DNA of 64,000 bases from Desulfobaccales bacterium (GTDB lineage: Bacteria > Desulfobacterota > Desulfobaccia > Desulfobaccales > 0-14-0-80-60-11): positions 13,366 to 77,365 of the forward strand of contig JBAUPV010000020.1 in NCBI GenBank assembly GCA_049580385.1, read 5' to 3'. A program made the translations under genes and the position numbers. Below the pieces are notes generated by a model, which was given only the letters and a program-made list of their open reading frames with translations, did no database searches and was not told the origin of the DNA. Position 1 is the stretch's first letter; the number at the start of each line of letters is the position of its first letter. Below, one piece after another: positions 3,903 to 28,591 of the stretch.

Positions 3903-3942
3903 GTGGATTTTCAAATTCTGTGAGGCCGGGGACCTTCTTAAG

Positions 3943-4428: not shown

Positions 4429-4462
4429 GAGGAGGCAGGAGAGGAGTCAAGATCCTGCGAAT

Positions 4463-5251: not shown

Positions 5252-5285
5252 CTCACTGGATTGCCTCTAAATATCAAAAAGATAT

Positions 5286-6462: not shown

Positions 6463-6622
6463 GGGGTGGTAACCATCGTTAAGCCATCGTTATTTGGGTC
6501 CCAATGCAGATTGTAAATCAGGCCAAGTTGTGCTATTGTATAATCTACCGTGTCTCTCAGACCAGAAGATACCATGGGCTGCTGCCCTTCTAATTTTCTA
6601 AATTATTTTGCAGGGAAAACAA

Positions 6623-8689: not shown

Positions 8690-8690
8690 A

Positions 8691-9329
8691 ATGAATCCAT
8701 ACACCGTCATCCTGGCCGATGATCATGCCATGTTCAGAGAAGGGGTAAGAAGGATCGTCGAACGGATTGAGGATCTATCCATAATCTGTGAAGTCAACGA
8801 TGGGCTCGAACTGCTAGACGTCCTAAAAGGGTCCCGCCCTGATCTAATCATCCTCGACATTTCGATGCCAAATCTGCGCGGTTTGGAGGCCATCAGGGAA
8901 ATTAAGAAGATTTATCCAAAAGTAAAAGTTTTAGTATTGACTATGCATAAGAAACGAGAATTTGTCCAACAGGCATTGAGAGATGGCGCCGATGGTTTTC
9001 TGCTCAAAGAAGATGCAGGTGGCGAACTTATCCGGGCAGTGCAAACCATCAGAAATGGTGAAAAGTATCTCTCTTCTCTACTTTCCAGTGTTCTAACTAG
9101 TATAGCTTTAGAGAAAGAAGAACCTGAGATTTTAACGAGGCGGGAAAAAGAAGTTTTAAAACTTGTAGCGGAAGGTAAAAAAACCAGGGAAATCGCCGAA
9201 GCTTTGTACATCAGTCCTAACACAGTGCGCCGGCACCGCTATAACGTCATGGAAAAGCTGAAGATCAAGAGACTGGCCGATTTGGTAAAGTATGCTATAT
9301 CTCAGAATTATATTCTCGACCAGCCTTAA
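8691..9329 (+). CDS. NarL/FixJ-family response regulator (REC + LuxR-type HTH)
   Basis: MNPYTVILADDH..., phospho-acceptor context LIILDISMP, and LuxR HTH REKEVLKLVAEGKKTREIAEALYISPNTVRRHRYNVMEKL. The start lies 1 nt after the kinase stop. Confidence 0.92.
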   Translation: MNPYTVILADDHAMFREGVRRIVERIEDLSIICEVNDGLELLDVLKGSRPDLIILDISMPNLRGLEAIREIKKIYPKVKVLVLTMHKKREFVQQALRDGADGFLLKEDAGGELIRAVQTIRNGEKYLSSLLSSVLTSIALEKEEPEILTRREKEVLKLVAEGKKTREIAEALYISPNTVRRHRYNVMEKLKIKRLADLVKYAISQNYILDQP

Positions 9330-10506: not shown

Positions 10507-10661
10507 GCCCTAATTCACTTGGTACAACTACTGGGGGACAGAGCCGCATAGCAGATAGCGGCATTTTAGGATGTGCTCCTGGCAATAATCTGCCAACCTC
10601 ACGCTCCGTTTTTTTGGGAGAAAAAAGAAAAAGTCGCGCCCATATCTTGCATACCCAGTTT

Positions 10662-12767: not shown

Positions 12768-12943
12768 GGCCTCTCTCCTCGGTGTGTAAGATTATGTCGT
12801 CCAGAGCTTTGGGGCGCGATTCCTAGACATGGCTTCACATTCTGCGTAAGCCGCAAGGGCCACCGAAAATGGGCTCACCCGCCAGATTTTGGGCCCATAT
12901 AAGGGTTGACCCAAGGAATAGGCTTCCCGCCCAATTTGGGAGA

Positions 12944-14170
12944 CTAAAACTTATAACTCACGCTGATGACCGCCGCATGCGACACCCGGCCTTCATAGGT
13001 CGTGGGCAGAACTCCAGCGGCTTGAGATTCGTTGACGGTGTGGTCGGGCATATACACCAGGTAATAGGCCAAATCCAGGTTTATATCCTGATAGCTAAAC
13101 CCGGCTCCGAAGCAAAAGTTGTGGCGGAGGTTGGGGGTGGGCACCAGATAGTCGGCATATTTATCCGGCATGGGTTCGTCCTCCAGGGCATAGCCAGCCC
13201 GGAGAGCCAGCCACGGCAAAGCCTGGTATTCAACCCCGAACTGGCCCCTCCAGTTGTCATGCCAGTCTTCTCGAGCGGATAAAGTGCCCAGGGGGTTATC
13301 AAAACGAAAATCAAAAGTCTTTAATAAGCCCCAGCGGGTATAAACAATTCCTGCTTCCAGAGACAATTTCTGCAGGGGTCGAACCATGATTCCGGTAAAA
13401 ATTTCGTCGGGGAGGATGACGCTGCTCCGGACGTTGGCATCCAGGATATTGAAAGGCTGGAAGTACGCCGGGGAGGAGATTTGCTGCCTCACCTGGCTGC
13501 GGTAGGAGATACCTATGGAGAGATAATCGAGGGGCTTCAGCAGAAGCCCGAAATTGTAACCGAGCCCCCAGCTGTGCCCATCCAGGCTGAGGGTTTGCGG
13601 GCCTATGTACGGTAAGGGCAGCACCCGGTCCTCATCGAAATTAAAATACATAACGTCCAACCCGCCGCCGGCGGAAAGATAATCTGTTATCTTCACGGCC
13701 GCAGTGGGATTGAAGTTTACGGTTTGAATATTGGCTTTGATGACGTTGACATCACCGGGCCAGTTGTCGGGATACTTGACCCCCAGTCCGAAGGGGGAAT
13801 TAATTCCCAGCCCCAGCCAGAGCCGCTCGGCAAGCTGGTGGGAAGCAAAGAAATGGGGCACAAAAGTTGGGCCTGTTTCTAACCCGGTGAGGGTTTCTGA
13901 GGGACCGCCATAGGTGGCGATATCGGCTCGGGGAAAAAAGGTCGAAAAACCGCCCATTACCTGGGTGCCCGGGAGTTGGACCAGACCGGCGGGATTGTAG
14001 AAAATGGTGGAGAGGTCATCTGCCCGGGCCACCACCGCGCCCGCCAGGGCGCTGCTACGGGCGCCGGCCTCGAACAGGGAGAAGCCGGAGGATCCAAGAG
14101 CGGGATCAGGGAGCATCACCATCCAGCCCCAGACCGCAACCACGGCCAACCACCATCGTTTGCTCCTCAT
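12944..14170 (-). CDS. FadL/TodX/OmpP1-family outer-membrane channel for hydrophobic compounds
   Basis: Signal peptide, then the family-typical N-terminus SGFSLFEAGARSSALAGAVVARADDLSTIFYNPAGL. Alternating beta-strand pattern and a C-terminal ...AVISVSYKF. Confidence 0.88.
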   Translation of the reverse strand: MRSKRWWLAVVAVWGWMVMLPDPALGSSGFSLFEAGARSSALAGAVVARADDLSTIFYNPAGLVQLPGTQVMGGFSTFFPRADIATYGGPSETLTGLETGPTFVPHFFASHQLAERLWLGLGINSPFGLGVKYPDNWPGDVNVIKANIQTVNFNPTAAVKITDYLSAGGGLDVMYFNFDEDRVLPLPYIGPQTLSLDGHSWGLGYNFGLLLKPLDYLSIGISYRSQVRQQISSPAYFQPFNILDANVRSSVILPDEIFTGIMVRPLQKLSLEAGIVYTRWGLLKTFDFRFDNPLGTLSAREDWHDNWRGQFGVEYQALPWLALRAGYALEDEPMPDKYADYLVPTPNLRHNFCFGAGFSYQDINLDLAYYLVYMPDHTVNESQAAGVLPTTYEGRVSHAAVISVSYKF

Positions 14171-14507
14171 ATCTACGCCCCCTTAGGGTGATGGCACCGG
14201 ACCATTAAAAATATCGAATATCCAGACTCCTGGCTCGTTCTCCTTTCTCCCAATAAAGGTAAAAATGAGAAGGTTACCTGATAGTTATCTTGACTGCAGC
14301 CGCCGGGTTCGTTCTTAAATGGAGAAAAGGATCGCATCCTCTGCCGCGGACCCAACGAGGCCGCAACCAGCCCGGGATTGCAACAGAAAATCAGACTGAG
14401 GTGGGCCGTCTGGCAACACCCTATCCAACTGAGCGGCGGATGAGGGTGGCGCCAGGATCGTTTTTTTCACTTATACAGATGATGCGATATCTTTGTAAAG
14501 AAAATTT

Positions 14508-14536
14508 TTGACTTTGCTTGCACTTTTTAATATAGT
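14508..14536 (+). promoter_or_regulatory. Sigma-70-type promoter candidate for the cyclase/STAND gene
   Basis: TTGACT (14508-14513), 17-nt spacer, TATAGT (14531-14536), about 170 nt upstream of ATG 14705. Confidence 0.4.
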
Positions 14537-14704
14537 ACCTTTGCCTGGGTAGGTATTACCTAACGATATTCTAACATTGTTTCTCCCCGAACCCATGGGG
14601 TCAAAAAATTGGGTTGGGTAGGTCTCACAAAACACGCCAATCGCCGGCACGAATTTCAGCTAGTTGACATCCCTGCATCGCAAGCCTCAATTTAAGGCAA
14701 GCCG

Positions 14705-17700
14705 ATGAAATGTCCCAGTTGCCGAAGCGTCAATGAGGAGAGAGAAAAGTTCTGCAGGTCCTGCGGGGCCAAGTTGGGGGAGCCCTGCCCTGACTGCGGG
14801 ACCGTTATCTTTCCAGGTGACAAGTTTTGTACCGAGTGCGGGCGGAGGCTCTGGTCCCAAGAAGGTGTCCCCAAAATCCAGGAAGAAGTCCCAGCCGAAC
14901 GCAAGCATGTCACTGCCCTATTCGCCGATATCTCCGGCTACACCGCCATCAGTGAGCGTTTGGACCCGGAAGAATTAAAAGACCTCGTTGGCCCTCTTAT
15001 CGGGGAGATGGCCAAGGTGGTTATCGGGTATCATGGTACTATCGAGAAGTTTGCCGGGGATCAAATTATGGCCTTGTTTGGTTTTCCCCGGGCCCATGAG
15101 GATGATCCGGTACGAGCCATCAGAGCGGCGACGGAAATTCACCAGGTGGTGCGAGAGATAAGCCAGAAGGTCGCGAAGGCCTTAGGACAGCCTCTGGCTG
15201 TGCATATCGGCATCAACAGCGGACTCGCGGTAACCGGGCAGGCCGACTTCGATCACCTGACCCACCATATTGCCGGTGATGCCATCAATGTCGCCTCCCG
15301 GTTGTGCAACCTGGCCAAAGCCGGCGAAACCCTGGTGGGCCAGACCACTTATTCCCAGACGAATGGCTTTTTTTCCTTCGCACCCCTGGAGCCGATCCAG
15401 GTAAAAGGTAAGTCCAAGCCGATCCAGGTCTATCGGTTTTTAGCGCCGAAGGAGTTGCCTAAAAAGACACACGGGGTTTCCGGACTGCGGGCGGAACTGA
15501 TTGGGCGCCACAAGGAAATGGCGACGTTGGCGCAGGCGGTGGACCGGCTCCTTAAGGGAACGGGAACCTTTATCGCCATTTGCGGGGAGGCCGGCACCGG
15601 AAAAAGCAGGCTCATCGAGGAGTTCCGGGTTACCCTGGACGTCAATACGATCAATTGGATCGAGGGTAATGCCTATAACTATACCCAGAATATTTCCTAT
15701 TATCCCCTCATTGATCTACTTAATAGGGAACTGGGCATAGAGGAGAGCGATGCACCGGAAAAGGTGAGGGAAAAACTTGAGGCCCGCGTGGCTGAATTGG
15801 TTGGCGCTAGAGCAGACGTGGCGCCGTACCTTGGGAGTCTCCTTTCTCTAAATTATCCCGAGACTGTGGGGGTGAGTCCTGATTTCTGGAAGTCCAGCCT
15901 CTATCGGGCCGCCCAAGCAATCCTGGAGGCCCAGACTAAAAAAGCCCCCACCGTGATCTGCCTGGAAGACCTTCACTGGGCCGATTCCACCTTTTTGGAA
16001 TTTCTGCATTCCACCCATATGCAACAACGGGCCAGCGCCCTTACCTTGTGCACTTATCGTCCCCCTTTGAAGCTGTTTAGCAGCCAGGAAATCAGTTTGT
16101 TGGGGGAGGCCTATCAGGAGATCGAGCTCCAGGATCTCTCCTTGGAAGAGACTCAAGAGATGGTGCAGTCTATGCTGGAGACGGCCGAGATTCCGGAGGA
16201 GCTGCGACAATACCTTCAGGTGAATATGGGTGGTAATCCTTTTTACCTGGAGGAAATGCTCACCTCCATGACCGAATCGGGAACATTGCGGCGCCATGGG
16301 GGCCGCTGGCAACTCACCAGGACCATTGCCGAATCTGATATACCGCCCACCATCCACGCGGTCATTACCGGTAGGATAGATCGTCTGGAGAGCAGGACCA
16401 AGCACCTGCTCCAGGAGGCTTCGGTGCTTGGCAGAACGGTTCCTTACGAAATCCTTAAAGGAATCACCGAATACCCCGATTCCCTGGACCGGTCCCTAGC
16501 CGATCTGGAACTCCTGGACCTGGTCCGCAGAGATCCCCAGGCAGAACAGGAATATGTTTTCAAACACGCTTTGATTCAGGAAGTGGTTTATGGCAGCCTG
16601 TTAAAAAAGGATCGCCAGGCCATGCACCAGCGAATCGGCCTGGTGATGGAGCAAGTGTTCCAGGACCGGCTCCCGGAAATCTACGAAACCCTCTCCCTTC
16701 ATTTTAAGCACACTGAGCTATCTCAAAAGGCGCTTCATTATCTGATCGAGTCGGGCAGGAAAAGTCTGCAAAAGTATGCCGTGCAAGAATCCCATCGTTA
16801 CTACCAGAAGGCTTTCCAGATCCTAGTCAAAATCCGGGGGAAATCGGAAGAAGAAAAAAAGCGCCTGGTCGATTTTCTCAACGAATGGGCCAATGTATTT
16901 TACTACCGCGGTGATTTTAGAGGGTTCACCAGACTGCTGCTGGCCTATAAAGAATTGGCCGAATCTATCGAGGACAAAGCCCGTCTGGGAATCTACTATG
17001 CTTGGCTGGGCTTTGCCTTGTTCGGTTCCGGCAAGGTGCGGGAAGCTCATGGCTATTCGAGCCAAGCCCTGAAGTTGGGAGAAGAGATCGGAAGTTATCC
17101 CATCATTGGACTTGCCTATGCCAATTTGACTTGGACCTGTGCCGAATTGAAACTGCTGGACCAGGGCATTCAATACGGCATCGAGGCCGAGAAGATAGCC
17201 CGGCTATACGAATTGGAGCCCATGATCTTTTTTCAATCCCTCAGCGGCATGGGGATGATTTATCTATTTAAGGGGAACAGTGAAAAGAATTTTGAAATTG
17301 GCAGGGTGCTGCAGGAATATGGAGAAAACCGCTCCAATCTTCGGAGTATTGTGGTGGGGCATATCATCACCGGCTACGGGCATTATACGAACGGGGATTT
17401 TAACCGCGCGATTGAATGCTGCAAAAAGGCCATTGCATTGTTAAATGATCCATTATTTTCCGAATGGCCGAAGCTGTTCCTTTGCATGAACTATCTAACC
17501 AATGACCAGATAGAAGAAGCCGAGGACCTTATCCGCGAGATTCTTCCGTTTTGCGAAGATCTTGGCTTAGGATACATAGTAAGTGCGGCCCAAGTATTCC
17601 GCGGGGCCGTATTCGTTGCCCAAGGCCAACCTTCCCGGGGGATAAAAATCCTTGAAAAAGACCTGCGGATATTTGAAGATAATGGGCGATTCTACTCACT

Positions 17701-17992
17701 TTACGTAATTCAAACTGCAGTGGCGGAGACCTATTTCAGAATTGCTACTCGGTCCCAGTCTCTCAAATTTATGGATCTCATTAAAAACCTGGGGTTTATT
17801 ATTACGATACTGCCTTTTGCGAGACGCCGCGCCGAAGCCTACTTGAACAAGATTATCCAGGTGGGCCGGGAGGTGGAGTCCCAAGGCTTTGTGCAAGGCC
17901 AGGCTTTGCTCAATCTGGGATATCTGCACCGGTTTAAAGGGGAAGCCGGCCAAGGCCCGGGAATGCTTCTCCGAAGCGCTGCAGATCTTTGA
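14705..17992 (+). CDS. Multidomain signalling protein: double zinc ribbon + class III adenylate/guanylate cyclase + AAA/STAND ATPase + TPR-like C-terminal region (apparent 3' frameshift, see findings)
   Basis: MKCPSCRSVNEEREKFCRSCGAKLGEPCPDCG..DKFCTECG. Cyclase core ERKHVTALFADISGYTAISERL...GTIEKFAGDQIMALFGFP. Walker A ICGEAGTGKSRL. Long helical repeat region. Confidence 0.85.
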   Translation: MKCPSCRSVNEEREKFCRSCGAKLGEPCPDCGTVIFPGDKFCTECGRRLWSQEGVPKIQEEVPAERKHVTALFADISGYTAISERLDPEELKDLVGPLIGEMAKVVIGYHGTIEKFAGDQIMALFGFPRAHEDDPVRAIRAATEIHQVVREISQKVAKALGQPLAVHIGINSGLAVTGQADFDHLTHHIAGDAINVASRLCNLAKAGETLVGQTTYSQTNGFFSFAPLEPIQVKGKSKPIQVYRFLAPKELPKKTHGVSGLRAELIGRHKEMATLAQAVDRLLKGTGTFIAICGEAGTGKSRLIEEFRVTLDVNTINWIEGNAYNYTQNISYYPLIDLLNRELGIEESDAPEKVREKLEARVAELVGARADVAPYLGSLLSLNYPETVGVSPDFWKSSLYRAAQAILEAQTKKAPTVICLEDLHWADSTFLEFLHSTHMQQRASALTLCTYRPPLKLFSSQEISLLGEAYQEIELQDLSLEETQEMVQSMLETAEIPEELRQYLQVNMGGNPFYLEEMLTSMTESGTLRRHGGRWQLTRTIAESDIPPTIHAVITGRIDRLESRTKHLLQEASVLGRTVPYEILKGITEYPDSLDRSLADLELLDLVRRDPQAEQEYVFKHALIQEVVYGSLLKKDRQAMHQRIGLVMEQVFQDRLPEIYETLSLHFKHTELSQKALHYLIESGRKSLQKYAVQESHRYYQKAFQILVKIRGKSEEEKKRLVDFLNEWANVFYYRGDFRGFTRLLLAYKELAESIEDKARLGIYYAWLGFALFGSGKVREAHGYSSQALKLGEEIGSYPIIGLAYANLTWTCAELKLLDQGIQYGIEAEKIARLYELEPMIFFQSLSGMGMIYLFKGNSEKNFEIGRVLQEYGENRSNLRSIVVGHIITGYGHYTNGDFNRAIECCKKAIALLNDPLFSEWPKLFLCMNYLTNDQIEEAEDLIREILPFCEDLGLGYIVSAAQVFRGAVFVAQGQPSRGIKILEKDLRIFEDNGRFYSLYVIQTAVAETYFRIATRSQSLKFMDLIKNLGFIITILPFARRRAEAYLNKIIQVGREVESQGFVQGQALLNLGYLHRFKGEAGQGPGMLLRSAADL

Positions 17993-18203
17993 ACGAGGTA
18001 CCTCGGAAACCCATCTCCAACAAGCCCGGGAGGCTCTGGCATCGGTTAGCTAATCGACCCGGTAAGAGCAGGGACACAAAAACTCAATCTTTGCTCAGCC
18101 ACTATTTTGGAGGTTGGTCTTCGGAAGGAACCAGAAGCAAAGCGGTTCTTTCGTCCTAGTAGGTTTCTGGTTACTGGCCCCACGAAGCAGTTGGAGATCC
18201 TAA

Positions 18204-19535
18204 ATGCGTATCCTGCTGGTCGCCCCCCGCTCAGAATATCCCGAAGCCATTCCAGGTTGGATTCTCATCCCGCAGCTGTCCCTGCTTATTTTAAAGGCAT
18301 TGAGCGGAAACGGCCACCAAGTGGTGACGGTGGAGGAAGACTCGGCTGCCATTCCCCGAGATGGAAAGTGGGACTTGGTTGGGATCACAGTTATGACGGC
18401 CACGGCTTCCCGGGCCTATGCCCTGGCCAGGGAGTTCAGGAAGCAGGGGGCCAAGGTGATCCTGGGGGGCATCCACCCTTCGGTGCTTCCGGAAGAAGCC
18501 GGCCAGCATGCGGATGCGGTACTGGTGGGAGAGGCCGAGGGCCTCTGGCCGGCCATCCTGGAGGACGCAGCACGAGACGCTCTTAAGCCAACCTATTACA
18601 ACCACGTGCCGGAGACGATACAGGTGCCTCTGGTAGATTACAAGCAGAATAAAAAGTCGCTGATCCCCACTGCCTCGCCTGTCATCTCCGGCCGGGGCTG
18701 CCCGAACGGGTGTGAATTTTGCTCGGTTTCCCGGATTTACGGGAGCCGGGTGCGGAAGGTGCCGGTTGAGCAAGTTCTGGAGCAGGTGAAGCGCAGCCAC
18801 AGCCATTATGTCGCTTTTCTGGACGACAACCTTACAGCCGACCGCGACTACGCCCTGGCGCTGTTCGAAGGGCTTAGAAGGCTGAAGGTGAACTTCATTG
18901 GGCAGGTCACTGTCAGGTTCCTCCTGGATGCTATTTTATTCCGAGCGGCCGTGGCCGCGGGGCTCAAAGGAATCTTCGTCGGTTTTGAGACCATTGAAGA
19001 AGAGGGGCGCCAACGCTTGAAGAAATCGGTATCTCTGCAAGCCTATGGCGAGGTCATTCGGAAATGCCGGGCTGCCCGCGTTTTTTTGCACGGCTCCTTT
19101 ATCTTCGGCCTGGACGAGCATGATAAAACCATTTTCAGCCGCACCCTGGACTTTATCATGCAAAACCAGCTCACTTCGGTGGGCGCCTATGTGTTGACCC
19201 CATACCCGGGCACCCCCCTCTTCGACCGCATGGTGGCGGAGGGACGCTTACTCCATCAAAATTGGGCTTTCTATGACCATGGCACCCCGGTTTTTGTCCC
19301 GGAGCGCATGACCTTGGAAGAGCTTGCTGAGGGATACGTTAAATTCCGGGAATCGGTCTTCAGTCTCTGGGGCATTGCGCGTCGGTGTCCTCCCGGATTA
19401 GCAGCCGCCTATGTCGCCCTCCAGGTGAACGCGGCGCTGCGGCGGGTGAACTTACAACTCCGGGACCACTATAAAAACTACTTCAATTGGCTGCAACAAG
19501 CCGATCTGGGGAGACAGATAAAAATAAGTAATTAA
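18204..19535 (+). CDS. Cobalamin-binding-domain radical SAM protein (class B)
   Basis: N-terminal B12-binding-like fold (MRILLVAPR...DLVGITVMTATASRAYALAREFRKQGAKVILGGIHPS). Radical SAM cluster motif GRGCPNGCEFCSV. Confidence 0.85.
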   Translation: MRILLVAPRSEYPEAIPGWILIPQLSLLILKALSGNGHQVVTVEEDSAAIPRDGKWDLVGITVMTATASRAYALAREFRKQGAKVILGGIHPSVLPEEAGQHADAVLVGEAEGLWPAILEDAARDALKPTYYNHVPETIQVPLVDYKQNKKSLIPTASPVISGRGCPNGCEFCSVSRIYGSRVRKVPVEQVLEQVKRSHSHYVAFLDDNLTADRDYALALFEGLRRLKVNFIGQVTVRFLLDAILFRAAVAAGLKGIFVGFETIEEEGRQRLKKSVSLQAYGEVIRKCRAARVFLHGSFIFGLDEHDKTIFSRTLDFIMQNQLTSVGAYVLTPYPGTPLFDRMVAEGRLLHQNWAFYDHGTPVFVPERMTLEELAEGYVKFRESVFSLWGIARRCPPGLAAAYVALQVNAALRRVNLQLRDHYKNYFNWLQQADLGRQIKISN

Positions 19536-19619
19536 CATAATACAATGGTCATGACCCGGTAAAACTATTAATCATCTTCTGCCGACCGGCCCCGGATCCC
19601 TGGCCTAGAGGAGGTAGCC

Positions 19620-22070
19620 ATGGAAACAATGAATAGAGTCACCTTCAAAGATTTGAGCCTGGGAGACATTACCCTGAAGACGCTGCCCAGGCTCGCTGAG
19701 ATGCGGAAGCGCCACTTCAAGAGCCGACCGGAGATCTGCACGGAGCTTCCCCTTAATATTACCCGTTATCTGCAGGATCCGAACCATGAGGCGGACCCGC
19801 CGGGGCTGCGGGCGGGAAAACTCTACCAGTACGTGCTGGAAAAAAAGAAGGCGCGGATTGCGGAGGGCAACTTGCTGGCCGGAACCACCAGCACGAAAGA
19901 CATTGGGGTGATGCTGTATCCCGATCTCTATTCCCTGTCCCTCTGGCCGGAATTGGAGACTATGGCCACCCGGCCGAAAAATCCCTTTAAAATCAAACCG
20001 AAAGATATTGAAATCCTGAATCTCAAAGTCTTCCCTTTCTGGCTCGATCGCACCGTCATGGAAGTTACCCGCAGGGATAATGGCAACCCCCTGTGCCAAC
20101 GGCTCATGGAGCGGCTGCTCTTTTACATGGTGAGCAAGGGGGAAACCATTTCCCACACCATCCCCAACTACGGGGTGGTGGTGGAGAAAGGGCTGGCGGC
20201 CCTCATGACAGAGGCCCAGCAAGGTCTGGCCAAAAGCCATGACCCAGAGCAGCAAAGCTTTTTCCAGGGGGTCGAACTGGCCCTGGGAGGCATAATTAAC
20301 TATGCCGAGCACCTGAGCGAGAAGGCCCTGGAACTGGCTGAAAAAGAGACCGATTCCCAGCGCCGGCAAGAACTCCAGCAGATGAGCGAAATCTGCCAGT
20401 GGGTACCGGCCCATCCGCCCCGGAGCTTCTGGGAGGCCCTGAATGCCATCTGGATCTGCAAGATCGCCCTGCACCAGGAAAACGCCAATCTGGCCCTGTC
20501 CCTGGGCCGCCTGGACCAGATCTTGTATCGCTTTTATGCCGAGGATTTTAAGAATAAAATCCTGACTCGGGCCCGGGCCGTGGAACTGGTGGGCTGCTTC
20601 TGGCTCAGCATCGCCGACCATGTGCCCATGATTCCGGAAGCCGGGGAGGAGTTTATCGGCGGCAGCGGCTCCAACCAGGCCATTACCCTGGGGGGCGTCG
20701 ACCGGCAGGGCCGGGATGCAGTCAATGACCTAACCTATGTCATGCTCCGGGCCACCGAGATCTTAAAGTTGCGGGACCCCAATGTTAATGCCCGTTATCA
20801 TTATGAAGTGAACCCTCCTGAATATCTGGAGCGCCTCTGCCAGGTGAATATGAACACCTGGGCCACTCCCTGTTTCCACAATGACGTGGCGGTCATCCAA
20901 ACCTTGCAGGAAACCTATAAAGCCCAGAAAATCTCTTTGGAGGATGCCCGGGACTATGGCGTCGTGGGCTGTGTGGAGCCCATCAGCGCCGGCCGGACTT
21001 ACGGCCACACCGGCGCCATCTTTATTATCCTCACCGCGGCCCTGGAAATGGCGCTCTTTGGAGGGAAGCATCGCCTGACCGGAGACGAGCAGATCGGGCC
21101 CCGGACCACGCCGCTGGAGTATTTGAATTCCTATGCAGATTTTCAGAAGGCCCTGGAGACCCAGATCGACTGGCTCATCCTTCAGGCGGTAACATTTAAC
21201 AATTACGCCGGGATCACCCACCAGAAGATCCACCGCACCCCCATGCTGTCGGCCCTGATGGAAGGGTGCCTGAAAAATGGCAAGGATGTGATATGCGGCG
21301 GGGCTACTTATAATTCTTCGGGAGCCACCATCATCGGCCTGGCGGAGGTGGTGGACTCGGTGACGGCCATTCAGGAATTTGTCTTCGACAAGGGGGCTAT
21401 GTCCGCAGGCGACATGATCGCCGCCCTCCAGGCCAACTGGGAGGACCCTTATGCCAAATTCCAGGCCAGGATAAAGCATTCTCCGGAAAAATTCGGCCGC
21501 GAGAGTGCTCTGGCCCGGGACAACGCCGACTGGCTGTTGAGGTTTATTCATGATAACTTCGCGGGGCGCCAGAACTACCGGGGCGGCAAGTATAACGTGG
21601 GTTACTGGACCATGACCATGCATGCCGGCTTCGGGATGATTACCGGGGCGCTGCCCAACGGCCGGGAACAAGGGGAGAACTTCGCCAGCGGCATCACTCC
21701 CGTCTCCGGTGCGGCCCCCCAATTGACCCCCTGCCTCAACTTTGTGGGTGGGTTGGACCATCTGCAGATCACCAACGGCCAGGCCCTGAATCTGAAGTAT
21801 TATCCTTCGACCACTACGCTGCCAGCCTTTGCCAAGACCATTGAGGCTTACTTCCGCAATGGGGATGGCAAAACGGGGGGCTTGCAGGTGCAGTTCAACA
21901 TCATTGACCAGGATACCCTGAAAGAGTTGCAGCAGTTTCCCGACAAGTACCCACCCCTGATGGTAAGGGTTTCAGGATATACAGCCTATTTCCAGGACCT
22001 CAACCCGCAGATGCAGCAAGAGATCATCGACCGGGCCGAATACGACCTGATGACCGGACAGCAAATGTAA
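19620..22070 (+). CDS. Glycyl radical enzyme, PFL2/eliminase-like, unknown substrate
   Basis: GGAGG RBS. Thiyl loop VVGCVEP (Cys codon 20970-20972). C-terminal glycyl radical motif MVRVSGYTAYF (Gly codon 21975-21977). 816 aa. Confidence 0.92.
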   Translation: METMNRVTFKDLSLGDITLKTLPRLAEMRKRHFKSRPEICTELPLNITRYLQDPNHEADPPGLRAGKLYQYVLEKKKARIAEGNLLAGTTSTKDIGVMLYPDLYSLSLWPELETMATRPKNPFKIKPKDIEILNLKVFPFWLDRTVMEVTRRDNGNPLCQRLMERLLFYMVSKGETISHTIPNYGVVVEKGLAALMTEAQQGLAKSHDPEQQSFFQGVELALGGIINYAEHLSEKALELAEKETDSQRRQELQQMSEICQWVPAHPPRSFWEALNAIWICKIALHQENANLALSLGRLDQILYRFYAEDFKNKILTRARAVELVGCFWLSIADHVPMIPEAGEEFIGGSGSNQAITLGGVDRQGRDAVNDLTYVMLRATEILKLRDPNVNARYHYEVNPPEYLERLCQVNMNTWATPCFHNDVAVIQTLQETYKAQKISLEDARDYGVVGCVEPISAGRTYGHTGAIFIILTAALEMALFGGKHRLTGDEQIGPRTTPLEYLNSYADFQKALETQIDWLILQAVTFNNYAGITHQKIHRTPMLSALMEGCLKNGKDVICGGATYNSSGATIIGLAEVVDSVTAIQEFVFDKGAMSAGDMIAALQANWEDPYAKFQARIKHSPEKFGRESALARDNADWLLRFIHDNFAGRQNYRGGKYNVGYWTMTMHAGFGMITGALPNGREQGENFASGITPVSGAAPQLTPCLNFVGGLDHLQITNGQALNLKYYPSTTTLPAFAKTIEAYFRNGDGKTGGLQVQFNIIDQDTLKELQQFPDKYPPLMVRVSGYTAYFQDLNPQMQQEIIDRAEYDLMTGQQM

Positions 22071-22104
22071 TCCTTGGTTCAAAAATTCCACGACGAGGTG
22101 TCCC

Positions 22105-22581
22105 ATGTTTGATCCGATAGGATTTATCAAGAACCCGATAGTATTTATCCGGTACTTCCAAGCCAAGAGGAATTTGAAAAAAAGCCGGGGAGACGAGGTC
22201 ACCGAAGACTTCCTGACATTGTTACTTGACCTGATGAAGTGGACCTTCCTGATTGACCCGGATTACCGGCGGAATATTGAGCATTTCACCGGCGCTTACC
22301 GGTTTAAGGACAGGGACGGCAAGGTGAACGTCCTAGTCAAGTTTCACGGCGGCAAAATGGAGGTCAGCGACGACCCCTTCGCCGAGACGAAGGTGATGGT
22401 GACCTTTAAAGATAGCAAGACCCTGCGGGACTTCTTGCTGGCAGTCAAAAAGGATATCCTGCAGGTTCTCGTCCGCAATCAAATCCTGGTTACCGGCAAT
22501 CTCAATTATCTATATAAATTTGCTTTTATGGCCAACCACCCCCTGCGCGGGCTGCTGAATCTGGAAAATGAATTAACTTGA
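22105..22581 (+). CDS. SCP2 (sterol-carrier-protein-2)-like small protein
   Basis: GAGGTG RBS. GAYRFKDRDGKVNVLVKFHGGKMEVSDDPFAETKVMVTFKDSKTLRDFLLAVKKDILQVLVRNQILVTGNLNYLYKFAFM matches the SCP2 pattern: beta-strands, then 'D..l..ll.G......a...g.l...G......kf'. The fold is assigned by eye only. Confidence 0.6.
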   Translation: MFDPIGFIKNPIVFIRYFQAKRNLKKSRGDEVTEDFLTLLLDLMKWTFLIDPDYRRNIEHFTGAYRFKDRDGKVNVLVKFHGGKMEVSDDPFAETKVMVTFKDSKTLRDFLLAVKKDILQVLVRNQILVTGNLNYLYKFAFMANHPLRGLLNLENELT

Positions 22582-23492
22582 TGGGAGACCCTCAGCCCCT
22601 CATCTTGGACATCAAAAGACACGCTCTGGAAGACGGCCCCGGCATTCGGAGTACGGTCTTTTTCAAGGGCTGCAATCTGCATTGCCCCTGGTGCCATAAC
22701 CCCGATGCCATCGACCCCGCCCCAGAAATAGCCTTTTATCCCCGGGACTGCATCGGCTGCGGCGACTGCGTGGAGGTCTGCCCGACGGGCGCCTGCCGGC
22801 TGGAGGGTCAGGTTCTCATCGATCGGGAGCTTTGCAGCCGCTGCGGCGACTGCGCCGGGGCTTGCCCCAGCCAGGCCCTGCGGCTGATGGGGCGCCATTA
22901 TGAGGCCGGCGAACTGCTGGAAATCATTCTCCGGGACCGCACGTTCTATGCCGTTTCCGGCGGGGGAGTGACCCTCTCCGGCGGGGAGCCCACCCTGTTC
23001 CTGGACTACAGCAGGGCAATTCTGGGCCACTTGAAAGAGCTGGGTCTGCATACCGTCTTACAGACTAATGGGATGTTTGTCTGGAGCGAATTCCGGGAGC
23101 GGTTGCTGCCTCTGGCCGACCTGGTAATGATAGACCTGAAGGTTGCGGATGGGGAAAGGCACCGGGAATATACCGGCCAGGACAATGCCCTGGTCTGGAC
23201 CAACCTGGAATCCCTCCTTAGGGAAAAGCCTTTAGCGGCGTTGCCCCGCATTCCCTTGATTCCGGGGTTCACCGCCACCCAGGAAAACCTGGAGGCCCTC
23301 TCGCGGCGGTTGCAGGAGCTGGGTGTCAGAAAGTGTGCCTTGCTTCCCTATAATCCCACCTGGTTTCACAAAGCGGCAAGTATTGGAAAGCCCGTTGACG
23401 CCCGGTTATCCCCACACCTGATGACCCCTGCCGCCCTGGCGGCCTGCCGAGAAATATTTTCCTGGGCTGAAAATTCTGCCAATAACCTGTAG
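22581..23492 (+). CDS. Glycyl-radical-enzyme activating enzyme (radical SAM with two ferredoxin-like clusters)
   Basis: EDGPGIRSTVFFKGCNLHCPWCHNP. CIGCGDCVEVCP and CSRCGDCAGACP. SGGEPT. Its ATG overlaps the stop of the SCP2-like gene (TGATG). Confidence 0.92.
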   Translation: MGDPQPLILDIKRHALEDGPGIRSTVFFKGCNLHCPWCHNPDAIDPAPEIAFYPRDCIGCGDCVEVCPTGACRLEGQVLIDRELCSRCGDCAGACPSQALRLMGRHYEAGELLEIILRDRTFYAVSGGGVTLSGGEPTLFLDYSRAILGHLKELGLHTVLQTNGMFVWSEFRERLLPLADLVMIDLKVADGERHREYTGQDNALVWTNLESLLREKPLAALPRIPLIPGFTATQENLEALSRRLQELGVRKCALLPYNPTWFHKAASIGKPVDARLSPHLMTPAALAACREIFSWAENSANNL

Positions 23493-23586
23493 CACAGGCG
23501 ACTCGCTTGTAGTCCGAGCCGGCACTTATTTCAGAATTGGAGACTTTTTTCCTGGGCAGCTCTTTAGATTTCCAGGTTATTCACTA

Positions 23587-25260
23587 TTATTTAGCCTGGA
23601 TAGCGCTGGAGGAAGAGGATTCCACGGGGGCTTCCGATAACCTTGCCCTGGAACGCCCGGGAACCTCCAGCTGCCGCCCCTGGATGATGGCCGTGGCCTT
23701 TTGCCGCACCACCCTCCTTATTTCGAAGAGATCCTCTCCCATGGCACAGGTCTCGATATATTCTACGAACCTGGTGGGGTTGCGCCTCCACATCCCGATC
23801 ATCTGGGCCCAGAACTGACGCCGGTATGGCGGGCGGACGCCTTGCCACCAGAGGATTTTGAAAAACCCTTTGATTTGGATTAATATTCTGTGCCAGGCCA
23901 TTCCCTGGCCGGGGACGCGGCCCTTTGGCAAGGTATCCCTTGCGGCGACCAATGGGGCCTGGCGAACCGGCCCCATGGCCAGATAATAGCGGTAGGCCCT
24001 GGCCAGGTAACGGGATGGCTCATACAGGTAGTCCCAAGCCTCGATGTATTCCTGGATAATCTCGGCTTCCGGTCGGTCCGGTTGGTAGTTCAAGGCTGAG
24101 AAGGTCCCTGCGTCATCTCCCACATCCTGGCGCAGCCGTCCCTCTCTCTCCAATCGATGCCACAGACTGGTATGGGGGAAGGCCTGCAGGACCCCAAGCA
24201 TAGCCATCGGCATGGCGGTCTGTTCCATGAAGGCACAGATGCGCTCGCCGGTCCCTTTGGGTTCCCCGTCCAGACCGATGATGAAACTCCCCATAACCTC
24301 AATGCCTTTTTTCTGGAGGGTGTGCAGCGATTCCAGGAGCGGGTTGTTGATGTTGTGATATTTGTGGCTGGTTTGCAGGACATTCTCGTCCGGAGACTCG
24401 ATGCCGATAAAAACCTCCCTCAGGTTGACTGCGGTCATGAGGTCGATCATTTCCGGATCCTGCCCCAGGTTCACCGAGACCTGCGTAAAGAACCTGTAAG
24501 GCGCGCCCCGACTCCTCAACCAGGGAGTGAGTTCCTGCAGCAAAGCCCGGGCGTGCTTCTTACTGCCGATGAAGTTATCATCGCAAATGAACACGGTTCC
24601 CCTGGCCCCGAGCCGGTAGAGGGTTTCCAGTTCGGCGATGACCTGCTTAGGGGTCTTATAACGGGGCAAGCGCCCGAAAAGGCTTATCACATCGCAAAAT
24701 TCACATTCAAACGGGCATCCTCGAGAAGTCTGAATCGTATAGGCGGCGTAATCTTTCAGCCGCAACAGATCAAACCGGGGGATCGGCGAGGTCGTCAGGT
24801 CCGGCTTCCCACCGTTTTCGATTATCCCGGTCTTTCCTTGTTCCATCGCCTCCAAAAGTAACGGAATCGTATTCTCGCCCTCGCCCCGCACCACAAAGTC
24901 ACATCCCGCCTCCAGGACTTCCTCCGGGAGTGAAGTGGGGTGGGGTCCGCCGGCAACGACGATTTTTCCACGGAGCTTGGCTTCTCTCACCAGGGCCAAC
25001 AAGCCCGCCCTTTGAATGCGCATGGCCGATAGCAAAACCAGATCGGCCCCCTGCCAATCTTCCTCCGTCAGGCGTCTGGCGTTGAGATCGGCCAGACGCA
25101 GTTCCCATTCCGGGGGCAGCAAGGCGGCCACCGTAAGCAAACCCAAGGGTGGATGAGCAGTTTTGCTGCCTCGGAGCCGGCAAGATTTCTGGAAACTCCA
25201 AAATGAAAGGGGAAATTCTGGGCATACCAACAAAGCCCGCATAGTTATAAAACTCCTCAC
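23587..25260 (-). CDS. Cobalamin-binding-domain radical SAM protein with a long C-terminal extension (DUF4070-like)
   Basis: B12-binding-like N-terminus (ALLVCPEFP...ADLVLLSAMRIQRAGLLALVREAKLRGKIVVAGGPHPT). TSRGCPFECEFCDV. C-terminal about 150 aa helical region. Convergent with the GRE operon. Confidence 0.88.
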   Translation of the reverse strand: MRSFITMRALLVCPEFPLSFWSFQKSCRLRGSKTAHPPLGLLTVAALLPPEWELRLADLNARRLTEEDWQGADLVLLSAMRIQRAGLLALVREAKLRGKIVVAGGPHPTSLPEEVLEAGCDFVVRGEGENTIPLLLEAMEQGKTGIIENGGKPDLTTSPIPRFDLLRLKDYAAYTIQTSRGCPFECEFCDVISLFGRLPRYKTPKQVIAELETLYRLGARGTVFICDDNFIGSKKHARALLQELTPWLRSRGAPYRFFTQVSVNLGQDPEMIDLMTAVNLREVFIGIESPDENVLQTSHKYHNINNPLLESLHTLQKKGIEVMGSFIIGLDGEPKGTGERICAFMEQTAMPMAMLGVLQAFPHTSLWHRLEREGRLRQDVGDDAGTFSALNYQPDRPEAEIIQEYIEAWDYLYEPSRYLARAYRYYLAMGPVRQAPLVAARDTLPKGRVPGQGMAWHRILIQIKGFFKILWWQGVRPPYRRQFWAQMIGMWRRNPTRFVEYIETCAMGEDLFEIRRVVRQKATAIIQGRQLEVPGRSRARLSEAPVESSSSSAIQAK

Positions 25261-26011
25261 AAACCGCCAGTCGGGGGCAACCAGACGTTGGCTGGTTAAC
25301 TCGGTGATCTAAACTATTTTTCGAACTTCGCAACTGTTGTCTTTGCGAAAGTACCTCACCCATGACGAGCTTATATCAAAACCATCTGCGCGGATGAATG
25401 TGGTATTATTTATTTTCAACTTTCCTAAATTTATCTCACTTGCATGATGAGGCTGTTGTGTATTTTGCTTTTAAACTGGGAGAAAAATCTTATCTTATAT
25501 CATTTACCGATATAAAAGTTTATAACTTTAAGCTTTTCTCCCACGGGATGTCCAATGAAAACGTAATGATAAAGGTTAGCGCTCATCTCGGCCTCCATCT
25601 ATTATGTTATAATAAATATCAAAACTTCATCTACACTAGGATTAAGGTAATCACCTTTTCAAACTCGATGGCATCCAGGCATTTATTAACTCGAGATTAT
25701 GAGGTAGGCTTGAGTAATCGAAACATGCCTCTCTCACGAGAAGCAATATGTTAGCACAAAATTTTTCACCAAATCAACACCTTTCCGCAAATTCAATGAA
25801 TACCAGATCTTCAATGGCCCTGGAAGGCTCGGCATTGATTTGGAATTTATAAACCCCGAGTCAACCGGGTGTGGTGCTGAATTGGCGGTAAGGGAGTGAT
25901 TGCTGAGGTGGGCCAGGCCCATAGAAAGGTAACTTTCCGCACTCAGGTTATCCCTGAGTTATCCCTGATATAAATTGGGGTTAGCCGCTTTGGATAACCC
26001 CTTGGTTTCTC

Positions 26012-26086
26012 TGGAGCCGGCACGGGGGGTCGAACCCCGGACCTGCTGATTACGAATCAGCTGCTCTACCACTGAGCTATGCCGGC
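26012..26086 (-). tRNA. tRNA-Thr (anticodon CGU), CCA encoded
   Basis: The reverse complement folds by hand as GCCGGCA-TA-GCTC-AGTGGTA-GAGC-A-GCTGA-TTCGTAA-TCAGC-AGGTC-CGGGG-TTCGACC-CCCCG-TGCCGGC-T-CCA. Confidence 0.93.
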
Positions 26087-26446
26087 TTGGCCTCTATTTT
26101 AGCCCCCTTCCGTCTTTTTCGCAATGCTCCGCTATGGTGTTCCCAACTGCAACTTGGGAATGAGATTATAAGTCTCAGCAACCGGAGGATGGCGCCCATA
26201 TTCTTTTTCTGTCACTTGGTCTCCCGGTGGTTAGTAGATCACACAACACCACCAGGGGAGGCCCCTTGCCAGGTTAAAGGAGAAACCCTACGCAAAAAAT
26301 AATCCTGGGGGATGATACACCTATCCTGTTTCCCCTGGCCGCTTTGGCAGAAACTTGGGCTTGGGTCAAGGATTGCTTTTGCTTAAGGTACTGATTAAGG
26401 TTTCTGGGAAGGCTGAGCCAAAAAGATGAAGGCGGAGGCAACTTCG

Positions 26447-26763
26447 ATGAAAAAGGTCAATGTGATTGAGGCCAATGATTTCTCGGAAACGGGCATGAAA
26501 AAACTGCTGGTACACGACTCTCCCTATTTCAAGATCCTTACTTCAATTTCAAAGCTGGCCAGGAACTCCCGGTCCATGCCCACGACATCGAGGGACAGGT
26601 GAGTTTGGTAGTCTTGGAGGGCCAGGGGGAGTTTCTCGGGAAAGACGGCGCCATACTGCCGGTCACCCAAGGAGACGTGCTGATTTCTGAGATCGCCGAA
26701 CCCCACGGGATCAGGGCCGGGACCGACCTGCGGCTGCTGGTCACCATTGCCCCGCCTATTTGA
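26447..26763 (+). pseudogene. Cupin-domain protein with an apparent 1-nt deletion (frameshift near 26538-26541)
   Basis: GGAGG lies 8 nt before ATG 26447 and gives MKKVNVIEANDFSETGMKKLLVHDSPYFKIL. The next frame continues YFNFKAGQELPVHAHDIEGQVSLVVLEGQGEFLGKDGAILPVTQGDVLISEIAEPHGIRAGTDLRLLVTIAPPI* (cupin motifs). The total length of 317 nt is not a multiple of 3. Confidence 0.6.
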
Positions 26764-26860
26764 GTAGCGAAAAAGATCAGTTTCCTGTTATCTTTCTCTG
26801 CCCTGGGGCCTTTGACTTTGATTCCGCCCTTCCCAGAAAACAGATAACCACCGCTGAGCC

Positions 26861-28591
26861 TTACAGAGGCAGGATGTCGCCGTCCTTGACCTGATAGCCC
26901 ATGGCTCTTAAGATGGCGGACTGCCGCTTGCTGACCGGCCCCACCATCCTTTTGAGCTTGCCCTCCTCTTTCTCCTGAAAGATGGCGGTCCTTAGGGACC
27001 TCAACTCCTCCACGGCCTCACGGGGAGCGAGGTGGAAGCCCTGGGCACTGAGGCGCTGGCACAGAAGGGCCAGGTAGGTCATGGCCGCCACGCAGACAAA
27101 CAAGTGCACCCGGATTTTGGAGCCGGTCCAATGGTAAAAGGGCCTGGGGGCCACCGGCATGGCGCTCAGGGGTTCGCCCCCGTTGGCGGCCCTGAGGCCG
27201 TTGATTTTGCCCCCCGGGTTTTGGGTCGCCAGGACCCACCTGCTGCTGCAGGCCTCAAATATTTCCGCCGGGGCCCAATCCTCCCGGTCGGTGATGAAGA
27301 TCTGTTTCCCGAAATTACGTACGCTGTCAGCCATCCGGCGGTGGTCGAGCTGCAAGACCGGGTGGGAGCGCCCCTTCTCCCGGACCCACTTAAAGAGGCT
27401 GGGGCTGATTTGCAGCCGCTGGCACAACTGAGTCAGGCGGTCTTTGAGGGCCTGGGGCGCCTCTTTCCCCGACCCTGCCTGCAAACAGCCTTGCTCCTGG
27501 GCCGCCATCTCCCTGCGCACTTTTTGGACCTTTTTTCCAAGTTCCCAGTAGCTCTTTTGGAAGGCCTCGGGGTCGAAGGTGACGAACACCCGGCGGGAGC
27601 CTCCCCAGAAGTCGGCCCGGGTTTCATAAAAAAGCACCCGATCGTCGTCATCTCCCAAGGTGGGGTGGAGCCCCTGGGCCAGTCCAGGCAGGGGGGAAAA
27701 CTTCTTCATGGAGATCTTGGTTAATTCCGGAGCCGCCTCGGGAGGGCAGGAGGCGATGAAGTGCAGCCCTTCCTGGCCGTTGAGACGGCTGACCAGGGCC
27801 TCGGAGTCTATCCCGCGGTGGAAAAGCAAGGTGACGTCCTTAACCGGCACCCCCAGATGCGCCACCCGGTCCAACAGCCCATCCAGGCCGCGGTCGAAGA
27901 ACATCCCTTCCGAAAGGTTCCCGGAAAAGATTTGATAATATAAGGGCACCCGCTGCGGCCAGGCGCTCACCAGGGCCAAACCGCTGCCCGGCTGCCGGGG
28001 TTGTCTGATAAACTCCTCGTCCGGCCACGCCTCAGCCAAGAGCGGAGACTTGGGGGTAGCCGGTAATCCGGCGGCTTCGATCAATAAACGTCTTTCCCCG
28101 TTGGCCAAAAGGGAGTTCACTTTTTTAAAAAAGGTGACCGCGATCCGTTCCAGGTCCGAGTCATTGATGCGATCCCAGTGGTTCCAGAAATTCTGGGAAT
28201 TTAGGGACTCCAGGCGCAGGGGCCGGATGCGTTGAATGTCGGTGGTCTCATACCAGGCGGCCAGTTGCCGCTTACTGGTGGGGGCGATGGCCCGGTTCAA
28301 GGTGGCGTAAAAGACCATGTCTCCAAGAGAAGGACCGTTGGTGCGCTTCTTGGGGGGCAGAATTTCATTGACTATCCCGGCCAGATCCAGGTCCTTGTCC
28401 AACTCATTGATGACAAAGACCGACCCGAACTCCTTGGGAGAAATCCCCCCGCGGCCCAAGAGGGTTTCGACCTTGTCCGCGGTGCCCAGATAGACCTGGT
28501 TCACGGTGGTGGACTTGCCTTTGACCCGCTGGTTCTCCCTGATATAGTAATATTCATGCCCTTTCTTAACTTTCTTGTATAGGTGAGCCAT
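26861..28591 (-). mobile_element. IS1634/IS4-superfamily DDE transposase (intact ORF, 576 aa)
   Basis: N-terminus MAHLYKKVKKGHEYYYIRENQRVKGKSTTVNQVYLG and C-terminus ...RPFYHWTGSKIRVHLFVCVAAMTYLALL follow the pattern I associate with IS1634-family transposases. Terminal inverted repeats were not identified. Confidence 0.6.

Follow-up and report, generated by a model that had tools for sequence, protein, structure and literature searches.

We analysed a stretch of 64,000 nucleotides from a Desulfobaccales bacterium (assembly GCA_049580385.1, contig JBAUPV010000020.1, positions 13,366 to 77,365 of the forward strand), hereafter the window, and found that it carries a conserved unit of three genes. 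These encode a glycyl radical enzyme (GRE), a small protein with a predicted SCP2 fold (SCP2L) and the radical S-adenosylmethionine (SAM) enzyme that activates the GRE (AE). The three genes form a functional unit, the triad, that is inherited together across several phyla. The three-part GRE/SCP2L/AE architecture is new, and the GRE family to which it belongs is widespread but unstudied. The genes of the triad are as follows:

19620-22070, + strand: GRE, 816 aa, matching Pfam PFL-like and Gly_radical
22105-22581, + strand: SCP2L, 158 aa, SCP2 fold according to a structural model
22581-23492, + strand: AE, the GRE-activating radical SAM enzyme with a ferredoxin-like insert, 303 aa, TIGR02494

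The GRE matched the Pfam families PFL-like (E 1.6e-154) and Gly_radical (E 2e-14), and both the glycyl motif RVSGYTAYF, with Gly786, and the thiyl loop GCVEP, with Cys451 and Glu453, were found in it. AE scored 268.9 bits against TIGR02494, well above the cut-off of 174.35. The GRE and SCP2L genes are 34 nt apart and are preceded by Shine-Dalgarno-like ribosome-binding sites (GGAGG and GAGG, respectively). The stop codon of SCP2L and the start codon of AE share one base (TGATG), as read directly in the sequence; the mechanical open reading frame (ORF) of AE opens at TTG 22578, and the ATG at 22581 overlaps the TGA of SCP2L. The coordinates, gaps, overlap and motifs given in a preliminary description of this DNA were all reproduced exactly by the ORF list and the sequence.

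An alignment of SCP2L homologs, all of them annotated as 'hypothetical', was scanned against one genome per species, and the best 80 of the 128 confirmed loci were kept. All 80 SCP2L-seeded loci (80/80) lie in metagenome-assembled genomes (MAGs), mostly from Desulfobacterota classes, from Geobacterales and from Syntrophia, with others from Nitrospirota, Nitrospinota, Holophagaceae, Fibrobacterota and Leptospirales. The ORF and BLAST tables placed the GRE gene directly upstream of SCP2L in 75 of the 77 assessable loci and AE directly downstream of it in 75 of 79. Order and strand were constant, and the order recurs in about 75 species-level genomes. The reverse test gave the same picture: SCP2L was present in each of the eight GRE-seeded loci that extend past the downstream end of the GRE, and GRE homologs at 80, 72, 66, 65, 59, 55 and 54% identity were accompanied by an SCP2L gene or fusion in every locus. 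In the three most distant GRE-seeded loci, the hidden Markov model of SCP2L matched at E 1e-48 to 1e-59. We also found the SCP2L domain fused behind the glycyl radical domain, in P0014 and other GRE homologs of about 1000-1055 aa (46% identity). A further GRE, P0402, carries a C-terminal SCP2L fusion, and such fusions occur in several lineages. An exhaustive profile search returned 294 representative clusters of the SCP2L family at E<=1e-10. Nine longer members were checked and comprised five GRE fusions or fragments, one fusion to pentapeptide repeats, one protein with an SCP2 domain only and two without a Pfam match. The recurrence of the gene order, together with the fusions, indicates that the triad is a real and strongly non-random unit, and the fusions imply a physical association of the GRE with SCP2L. 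The SCP2-like gene, which the preliminary description had taken for a partner of the GRE, was thus confirmed as a true and obligate one by the adjacency counts, the GRE-seeded loci and the fusions.

Two further observations concern this family. In P0341 (766 aa), an SCP2L-family domain stands N-terminal to a long pentapeptide-repeat region, with no GRE. When the window was compared with its closest relative (a Desulfobaccales MAG, L002, 10001-13011), the GRE and SCP2L genes were 79-93% identical per 200 nt and the flanking rSAM1 and AE genes 90-97%; at the protein level, the identity was 80% for GRE and 65% for SCP2L, as compared with 94% for rSAM1 (a radical SAM protein described below) and 92% for AE. 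The joint divergence of GRE and SCP2L reflects either co-evolution or a recombined segment.

We next consider what kind of GRE this is. It carries the superfamily fingerprint RVxG[FWY]x6-8[FL]x4Qx2[IV]x2R (PMC13450708) as RVSGYTAYFQDLNPQMQQEIIDR, with Gly786 as the glycyl residue. The other hallmarks of the superfamily were likewise found, namely a ten-stranded barrel fold with the Cys loop (PFL-like match and structural model), an invariant Cys451 and an AE gene nearby. The protein reached none of the NCBIfam equivalog cut-offs: it scored 542.7 bits against TIGR01774 (cut-off 678.2), 404.8 against the HypD model NF043068 (1100), 404.7 against the CutC model TIGR04394 (1050), 392.7 against the PflD-type model NF007437 (1109) and 389.6 against the HpsG model (1000). 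Four reference GREs (PFL2, PflD, glycerol dehydratase (GDH) and CutC), transcribed from printed HMMER alignments, were 29-32% identical to it. No family member exceeded 36% identity or 427 bits against these references, whereas the most divergent pair within the SCP2L-linked family still showed 42.8% identity and 642 bits, and 72 SCP2L-linked GREs were monophyletic with respect to the four references in a neighbour-joining tree. The GRE is therefore a member of the glycyl radical enzyme superfamily that lies outside every characterised subfamily tested. Its description as uncharacterised, made beforehand from the sequence, holds in view of its own clade relative to the four references and scores far below the equivalog cut-offs.

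Within the superfamily, the GRE very probably belongs to the Cys-x-Glu eliminase/isomerase group. The closest solved structure by phmmer was that of Archaeoglobus fulgidus PFL2 (2f3o, E 5e-117), followed by CutC, PflD and glycerol dehydratase. Eliminases as a group gave E values of 1e-100 to 1e-117, as compared with 2.6e-57 for MASS (9o8u) and 2.3e-45 for BSS. The AlphaFold2 model of the GRE (predicted local distance difference test, pLDDT, 85.6; predicted template modelling score, pTM, 0.90) superposed with a template modelling (TM) score of about 0.9 on propanediol and glycerol dehydratases, HypD, CutC, PFL2 and PflD. HPAD and MASS ranked lower than the eliminases in this fold search, MASS with a lower TM score and 23% identity. 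The GRE thus resembles the 1,2-eliminases (1R8W, 5I2G/9RCO, 6VXC and 5FAU) in its fold, in its single-Cys Cys-x-Glu loop, in a His at the position of GDH His164 and in its dedicated activase of the two-ferredoxin type. Unlike them, it shows 26-30% identity and equivalog scores at about 40% of the cut-offs, has an obligate partner of SCP2 fold, and lies in loci where genes for microcompartments or aldehyde handling were not found nearby. In the model, loops 100-120, 170-180, 338-349 and 660-700, around the predicted active site and channel, had pLDDT values of 45-60, and one such loop directly precedes the strand bearing Asn352. These low-confidence loops may be mobile gating elements or may merely reflect a shallow alignment.

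The relationship to PFL2 raises the idea that the GRE is an X-succinate-synthase-like hydrocarbon activator, as proposed for A. fulgidus PflD/PFL2, to which SCP2L delivers an alkane. The gene of the best phmmer match, AF1449, has been cited as possibly serving hydrocarbon metabolism (PMC7229112), a FadL/TodX-type channel is encoded nearby, and relatives of the GRE occur in Smithella, Syntrophus and Desulfobacterota MAGs. The GRE and PFL2 are 32% identical and share the strand SxxNQA(I/V)T(L/I)GG with Asn352, as well as the His and the Cys-x-Glu loop. PFL2, however, lies outside the SCP2L-linked clade and has an Asp at the position of window Gly465. We know of no SCP2 partner of PFL2, although no search for one was made here. 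The similarity of the GRE to MASS and BSS is much weaker than that to eliminases, genes for iron-sulfur (FeS) or rubredoxin small subunits were not found between 10.6 and 25.3 kb of the window, and the eliminase-typical Cys-x-Glu and His are invariant in the family. PFL2 itself is still listed without a known function, as 'a GRE of unknown function' (PMC13450708). We therefore regard an X-succinate synthase as very unlikely. Even less probable, in our judgement, is a decarboxylase that converts a hydrophobic carboxylic acid to a hydrocarbon. A hydrophobic carrier partner would fit such an acid, and the models of HPAD and indoleacetate decarboxylase matched the GRE partially, at 221 and 274 bits; these matches, however, span only about residues 180-809 and lie far below the cut-offs, HPAD ranks below all eliminases in the fold search, and no HpdC-like subunit is encoded at the locus.

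The predicted active site resembles that of the eliminases but has an altered pocket. Cys451, Glu453, His179 and Gly786 were invariant in 68 family members. His179 aligns with GDH His164 and with CutC Asp216. The substrate-binding residues of glycerol dehydratase, which we take to be His164, Ser282, Glu435 and Asp447, are not all retained: the His and the Glu are kept, whereas Ser282 is replaced by Ala (Ala292 in the window) and Asp447 by Gly465 in the window GRE and by Ser in the other subclade, so that the glycerol/propanediol dehydratase set is incomplete. In addition, GDH His281 is replaced by Leu or Met, GDH Tyr640 by an invariant Trp663 and GDH Ser642 by an invariant Met665. CutC Phe395 and GDH Tyr339 correspond to Asn352 in the window GRE and to Val in the other subclade. 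A choline lyase of the CutC type is not indicated, given the sub-cut-off TIGR04394 score and the replacement of Asp216 by His179 and of Phe395 by Asn352, nor is HypD, whose model NF043068 scored far under its cut-off. Two subclades were distinguished in the family alignment. The window-type subclade (18 sequences) has Asn352-Gln353, His463 and Pro454, and the second (50 sequences) has Val-Pro, Ala and Leu at positions 352-353, 463 and 454, respectively. In the characterised 1,2-eliminases and isomerases, the Glu of the Cys-x-Glu loop hydrogen-bonds the substrate hydroxyl in all cases, and PflD and YbiW, where this Glu takes the proton of a hydroxyl, use it to break a neighbouring ring ether C-O bond (PMC13450708). 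The GRE resembles these two enzymes (8ID0 and 8ID7) in its Cys-x-Glu loop, and PflD is its third-best sequence match in the PDB; they differ from it in acting on anhydro-sugar phosphates, in their 31% identity and in the NF007437 score (392.7 versus 1109).

The assignment of SCP2L as SCP2-like is weak by sequence and confirmed by the predicted fold. Its match to Pfam SCP2 (PF02036; E 0.0095, 16.7 bits) lies below the gathering cut-off of 21.3, and a few members of the family do carry a precomputed PF02036 match. The AlphaFold2 model, built on 28 homologs, had a pLDDT of 76, and the top 40 or so Foldseek matches in the PDB were all SCP2 folds (UbiJ-SCP2, sterol carrier proteins and C-terminal domains of alkylsulfatases). 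The best of them was 6H6P (UbiJ-SCP2), with probability 1.0 and TM scores of 0.55/0.73. SCP2L shares its fold with UbiJ and other SCP2 lipid presenters, as well as the role proposed here, holding a hydrophobic substrate for soluble enzymes. It is unlike UbiJ in its 12-17% identity, in having no link to ubiquinone genes and in its distinctive C-terminal helix, which is conserved as GNLNYxYKFxFMA, with GNLNYxYKFxxMA invariant. The family alignment showed no conserved cysteines.

The main rival to a lipid-presenting role makes SCP2L a small subunit with a structural or regulatory function, comparable to those of BSS, HPAD and MASS but without a metal, and has the GRE act on an ordinary small polar metabolite. 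Like HPAD gamma, BSS beta/gamma and MASS beta/gamma/delta, which are required in stoichiometric association, SCP2L is small and its gene adjoins that of the catalytic subunit. Known GRE small subunits make contact with the channel and with the glycyl radical domain (PMC13450708), and the fusion point of SCP2L lies exactly behind the glycyl radical domain. The substrates of known Cys-x-Glu GREs and the joint divergence of GRE and SCP2L, faster than that of their neighbours, also fit this explanation. A June 2026 review of GREs, however, describes small subunits for HPAD, BSS and MASS only, all of them metal proteins ([4Fe-4S] HiPIP-like or rubredoxin-like), and never mentions SCP2 or cobalamin (PMC13450708). 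In contrast to these subunits, SCP2L has the alpha/beta SCP2 fold and lacks conserved cysteines. The predicted pocket of the GRE has also lost polar ligands of glycerol dehydratase, and a FadL channel and lipid hydrolases occur in the neighbourhood of the triad. Taken together, we consider a purely structural or regulatory subunit rather unlikely. Literature searches on GREs with SCP2 or sterol carrier proteins, on DUF6765 (a neighbouring family described below) and on GREs with ether lipids yielded nothing relevant.

The genes surrounding the triad in the window are as follows:

18204-19535, + strand: rSAM1, 443 aa, Pfam B12-binding, Radical_SAM and weak DUF4070
23587-25260, - strand: rSAM2, 557 aa, B12-binding, Radical_SAM and strong DUF4070
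14705-17992, + strand: CYC, 1095 aa, with a double zinc ribbon, a class III nucleotidyl cyclase domain, AAA_16 (STAND-type ATPase) and TPR (Pfam)
12944-14170, - strand: outer-membrane channel of the FadL/TodX type, for hydrophobic compounds, oriented divergently to CYC (Pfam Toluene_X, E 8.8e-50)
10662-12767, - strand: 701-aa protein with a weak calcineurin-like phosphoesterase match (Pfam Metallophos, E 2.8e-6)
26012-26086, - strand: tRNA-Thr(CGT)
26861-28591, - strand: IS1634-family transposase

Both rSAM1 (PF02310 44.9 bits, cut-off 32.1; PF04055 60.2 bits; motif CPNGCEFC) and rSAM2 (B12-binding 60.7 bits; Radical_SAM 60.6 bits; motif CPFECEFC) resemble class B radical SAM enzymes such as HpnJ, BchE and AprD4, with an N-terminal B12-binding domain, a CxxxCxxC core and DUF4070. 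Neither reached an equivalog cut-off (best scores: HpnJ, 90 versus 578; TIGR04013, 108 versus 251). Among solved structures, AprD4 (6fd2) is the closest to rSAM1 in profile searches; it presumably has a B12-like domain without cobalamin, which puts the use of cobalamin by rSAM1 in question. An Rfam scan of the intergenic regions found no riboswitch, for cobalamin or otherwise, and detected only the tRNA.

The preliminary description placed the triad in an operon with a B12 radical SAM gene on either side. On this model, rSAM1, GRE and rSAM2 cooperate in a single pathway: the B12-type enzymes would methylate or rearrange a lipid, which the GRE would then cleave. Put to the test of synteny in related genomes that came with the description, this picture failed as far as rSAM2 is concerned, and it was weakened for rSAM1. 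Positions 10555-23515 of the window are collinear with the closest relative, L002, at 90-93% nucleotide identity. The collinearity stops about 20 nt past the stop codon of AE, with no match beyond. rSAM2 sits past this break, with the tRNA-Thr gene and the IS1634 transposase beyond it, and the region 23515-28591 looks like an insertion or rearrangement hotspot. At the corresponding junction of L003, an integrase fragment was observed. No ortholog of rSAM2 was found in about 90 related loci, where its BLAST matches were cross-matches to rSAM1-type genes only. We conclude that rSAM2 is an unrelated neighbour of the triad.

The case of rSAM1 is different. Its gene has the same orientation as the GRE gene and ends 84 nt before it, and no terminator is predicted in between. 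We examined nine independent contexts of rSAM1 orthologs at 58-94% identity (the window, L001, L007, L088, L089, L090, L171, L172 and L173); rSAM1 has many homologs besides. In all nine, the ortholog directly follows a CYC gene encoding about 1100 aa, and FadL stands divergently upstream of the CYC-rSAM1 pair in six. The triad adjoins rSAM1 in five of them, on the same strand in the window, L001, L007 and L171 and convergently in L088, an arrangement repeated in the partial contig L091. The other four (L089, L090, L172 and L173) contain the pair without any GRE. Conversely, among the 80 SCP2L-seeded loci an rSAM1 ortholog was present in one, and the rSAM1-GRE synteny is restricted to the nearest clade, with GRE identity of at least 66%. 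In L047, L073, L076 and L077, the triad is flanked by a CYC homolog that has no rSAM1 with it. We conclude that CYC and rSAM1 are a separate two-gene module, often located beside the triad in a Desulfobaccales-like lineage, and this module appears to be undescribed. If it were not recognised as a second unexplained module, it would be mistaken for a component of the GRE pathway.

Because rSAM2 has no orthologs near triads and rSAM1 is tied to CYC, nothing supports a methylation or rearrangement step by rSAM2 that feeds the GRE, and such a step by rSAM1 is no more than a weak possibility. The adjacency of rSAM1 to the triad in five distinct loci of the nearest clade, two of them with an inverted triad, speaks for such a pathway, as does the distant locus L060, in which the triad is preceded by two other radical SAM genes of the B12 type. 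We nevertheless hold the pathway of three cooperating radical enzymes to be improbable; rSAM1 may pass a metabolite on to the GRE, but nothing points to it. CYC, which accompanies rSAM1 in all nine contexts, probably has a sensory or regulatory role. It may be a regulator shared with the triad, and common regulation or a common class of substrate possibly explains why the module stands beside the triad.

Several observations on the module stand by themselves. The two radical SAM genes in L060, a Geobacteraceae MAG (3710-6516), lie directly upstream of the triad, are 37% and 23% identical to rSAM1, and constitute the sole other radical SAM association among the 80 loci. Variable genes for DUF362 proteins, lipase, phospholipase C or Metallophos proteins occur beside the CYC-rSAM1 module. 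CYC resembles TIGR03903 at 278 bits, under the cut-off. A reading of the STAND-like CYC as anti-phage defence was dropped, as PADLOC gave generic cyclase and radical SAM similarities and no defence system. A metagenome scan with the rSAM1 alignment returned, besides L091-L094, only paralogs at 33-41% identity without CYC or GRE and was uninformative on orthologs. In the window, the region upstream of the cluster (4463-9329) encodes a protein with SH3_3 repeats together with a histidine kinase (PAS/HisKA_3) and a response regulator of the GerE type. These three recur in L006 (10666-13424), a few kb downstream of its GRE::SCP2L fusion, and their presence at both sites may reflect shared regulation or mere shared ancestry.

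Clustering of all ORFs of the loci revealed recurrent accessory genes in the wider neighbourhood of the triad that are absent from the window. A DUF6765 gene (about 357 aa) was present in 38 of the 80 SCP2L-seeded loci, usually right behind AE. A protein of 710-830 aa, internally duplicated and without a Pfam match, was encoded in 34, a papain-like peptidase in nine, and several unrelated calcineurin-like phosphoesterases also recurred. Outside the subclade of the window (L016-L087; for example, L026 4937-12416 and L068 7295-14846), the usual layout is the 710-830-aa protein, GRE, SCP2L, AE and DUF6765, sometimes with a papain-like C1 peptidase upstream. Searches of the PDB by sequence and profile found nothing for DUF6765, the 710-830-aa protein or the 701-aa Metallophos-like protein. 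We abandoned the idea that DUF6765 is a relative of Zn-dependent phospholipase C, as there was no BLAST similarity to the L171 enzyme and no Pfam cross-match, and likewise that the 710-830-aa protein contains GXWXG/DUF4334-like domains, for which no Pfam match was obtained even at E<=10.

The slot beyond FadL is occupied by the 701-aa Metallophos-like gene in the window and by a Zn-dependent phospholipase C gene in L171, and a lipase gene lies near it in L172. The 701-aa protein is conserved at 83% in L001-L003. Neither the 710-830-aa protein nor the Metallophos proteins at other triads resemble it detectably. The Metallophos genes that flank the triad in L004, L006, L174 and L176 are unrelated. 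The FadL gene is intact in the window (408 aa). In L001 and L003 (3856-4987) it is split into ORFs of 258 and about 105 aa, which suggests a frameshift or pseudogene there.

We propose that SCP2L hands an amphiphilic or lipid-like substrate to the GRE, which would act on it as a Cys-x-Glu eliminase or C-O lyase, and we put the chances of this proposal at about even. The nature of the substrate is suggested by the obligate and sometimes fused SCP2L, by the loss of the polar pocket residues of glycerol dehydratase, by the FadL gene nearby, and by the recurring phosphoesterases and lipid hydrolases. A hydrophobic substrate, already put forward in the preliminary description, is a reasonable suggestion. 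According to this scheme, AE would install the glycyl radical at Gly786, and the Cys451 thiyl radical would then take a hydrogen from a hydroxyl-bearing carbon of the substrate. Glu453 would deprotonate the hydroxyl, and the neighbouring C-O (or C-N) bond would break heterolytically, with His179 as the presumed acid, a course of reaction known from the GRE 1,2-eliminases and from the C-O lyases PflD and YbiW. The substrate would be an amphiphile or lipid whose polar head bears a vicinal diol or a beta-substituted alcohol; on grounds of chemistry only, a glycerol ether or ester, a long-chain diol or a polyol lipid are candidates. SCP2L might lift it from the membrane and present it at the substrate channel, in the way UbiJ does with polyprenyl intermediates, and FadL and the variable phosphoesterases may import or unmask it.

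Other observations weigh against this proposal. Catabolic dehydratases are usually accompanied by genes for aldehyde or alcohol dehydrogenase, CoA ligase or microcompartments, and a Pfam census of 129 further triad neighbours showed no recurrent aldehyde/alcohol dehydrogenase, CoA ligase or microcompartment shell. The window has neither DUF6765 nor the 710-830-aa protein, both of which are typical of the family. rSAM1 adjoins even inverted triads (L088 and L091), so that a functional link of rSAM1 to the triad is possible. The relatives recovered with SCP2L are all from uncultured organisms. The active-site equivalences come from pairwise sequence alignments and the 68-member family alignment rather than from inspected coordinates. 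An SCP2 fold by itself is no proof of lipid binding, and SCP2L could be a structural or regulatory subunit. Finally, all characterised Cys-x-Glu GREs use small polar metabolites (PMC13450708).

The obligate pairing of a GRE with a lipid-carrier fold points to undescribed radical chemistry on hydrophobic substrates. The SCP2L-linked clade occurs in at least about 130 species-level genomes, from Desulfobacterota, Geobacterales, Syntrophia, Nitrospirota, Chloroflexota, Acidobacteriota and others. Tentatively, and with more doubt than for the proposal above, the clade might represent the first GRE family to use membrane or storage lipids as direct substrates. Such a radical lyase would work anaerobically and remove or cleave the polar head of a lipid by means of a built-in lipid-presenting subunit. 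Cleavage of the ether C-O bond in alkylglycerol-type or polyol lipids would be one example; to our knowledge, the only enzyme known for such a cleavage is O2-dependent. If this is true, the family would provide for an oxygen-independent turnover of ether lipids or polyol lipids in sediments, and the triad offers a testable handle on the anaerobic processing of lipids that resist hydrolysis.

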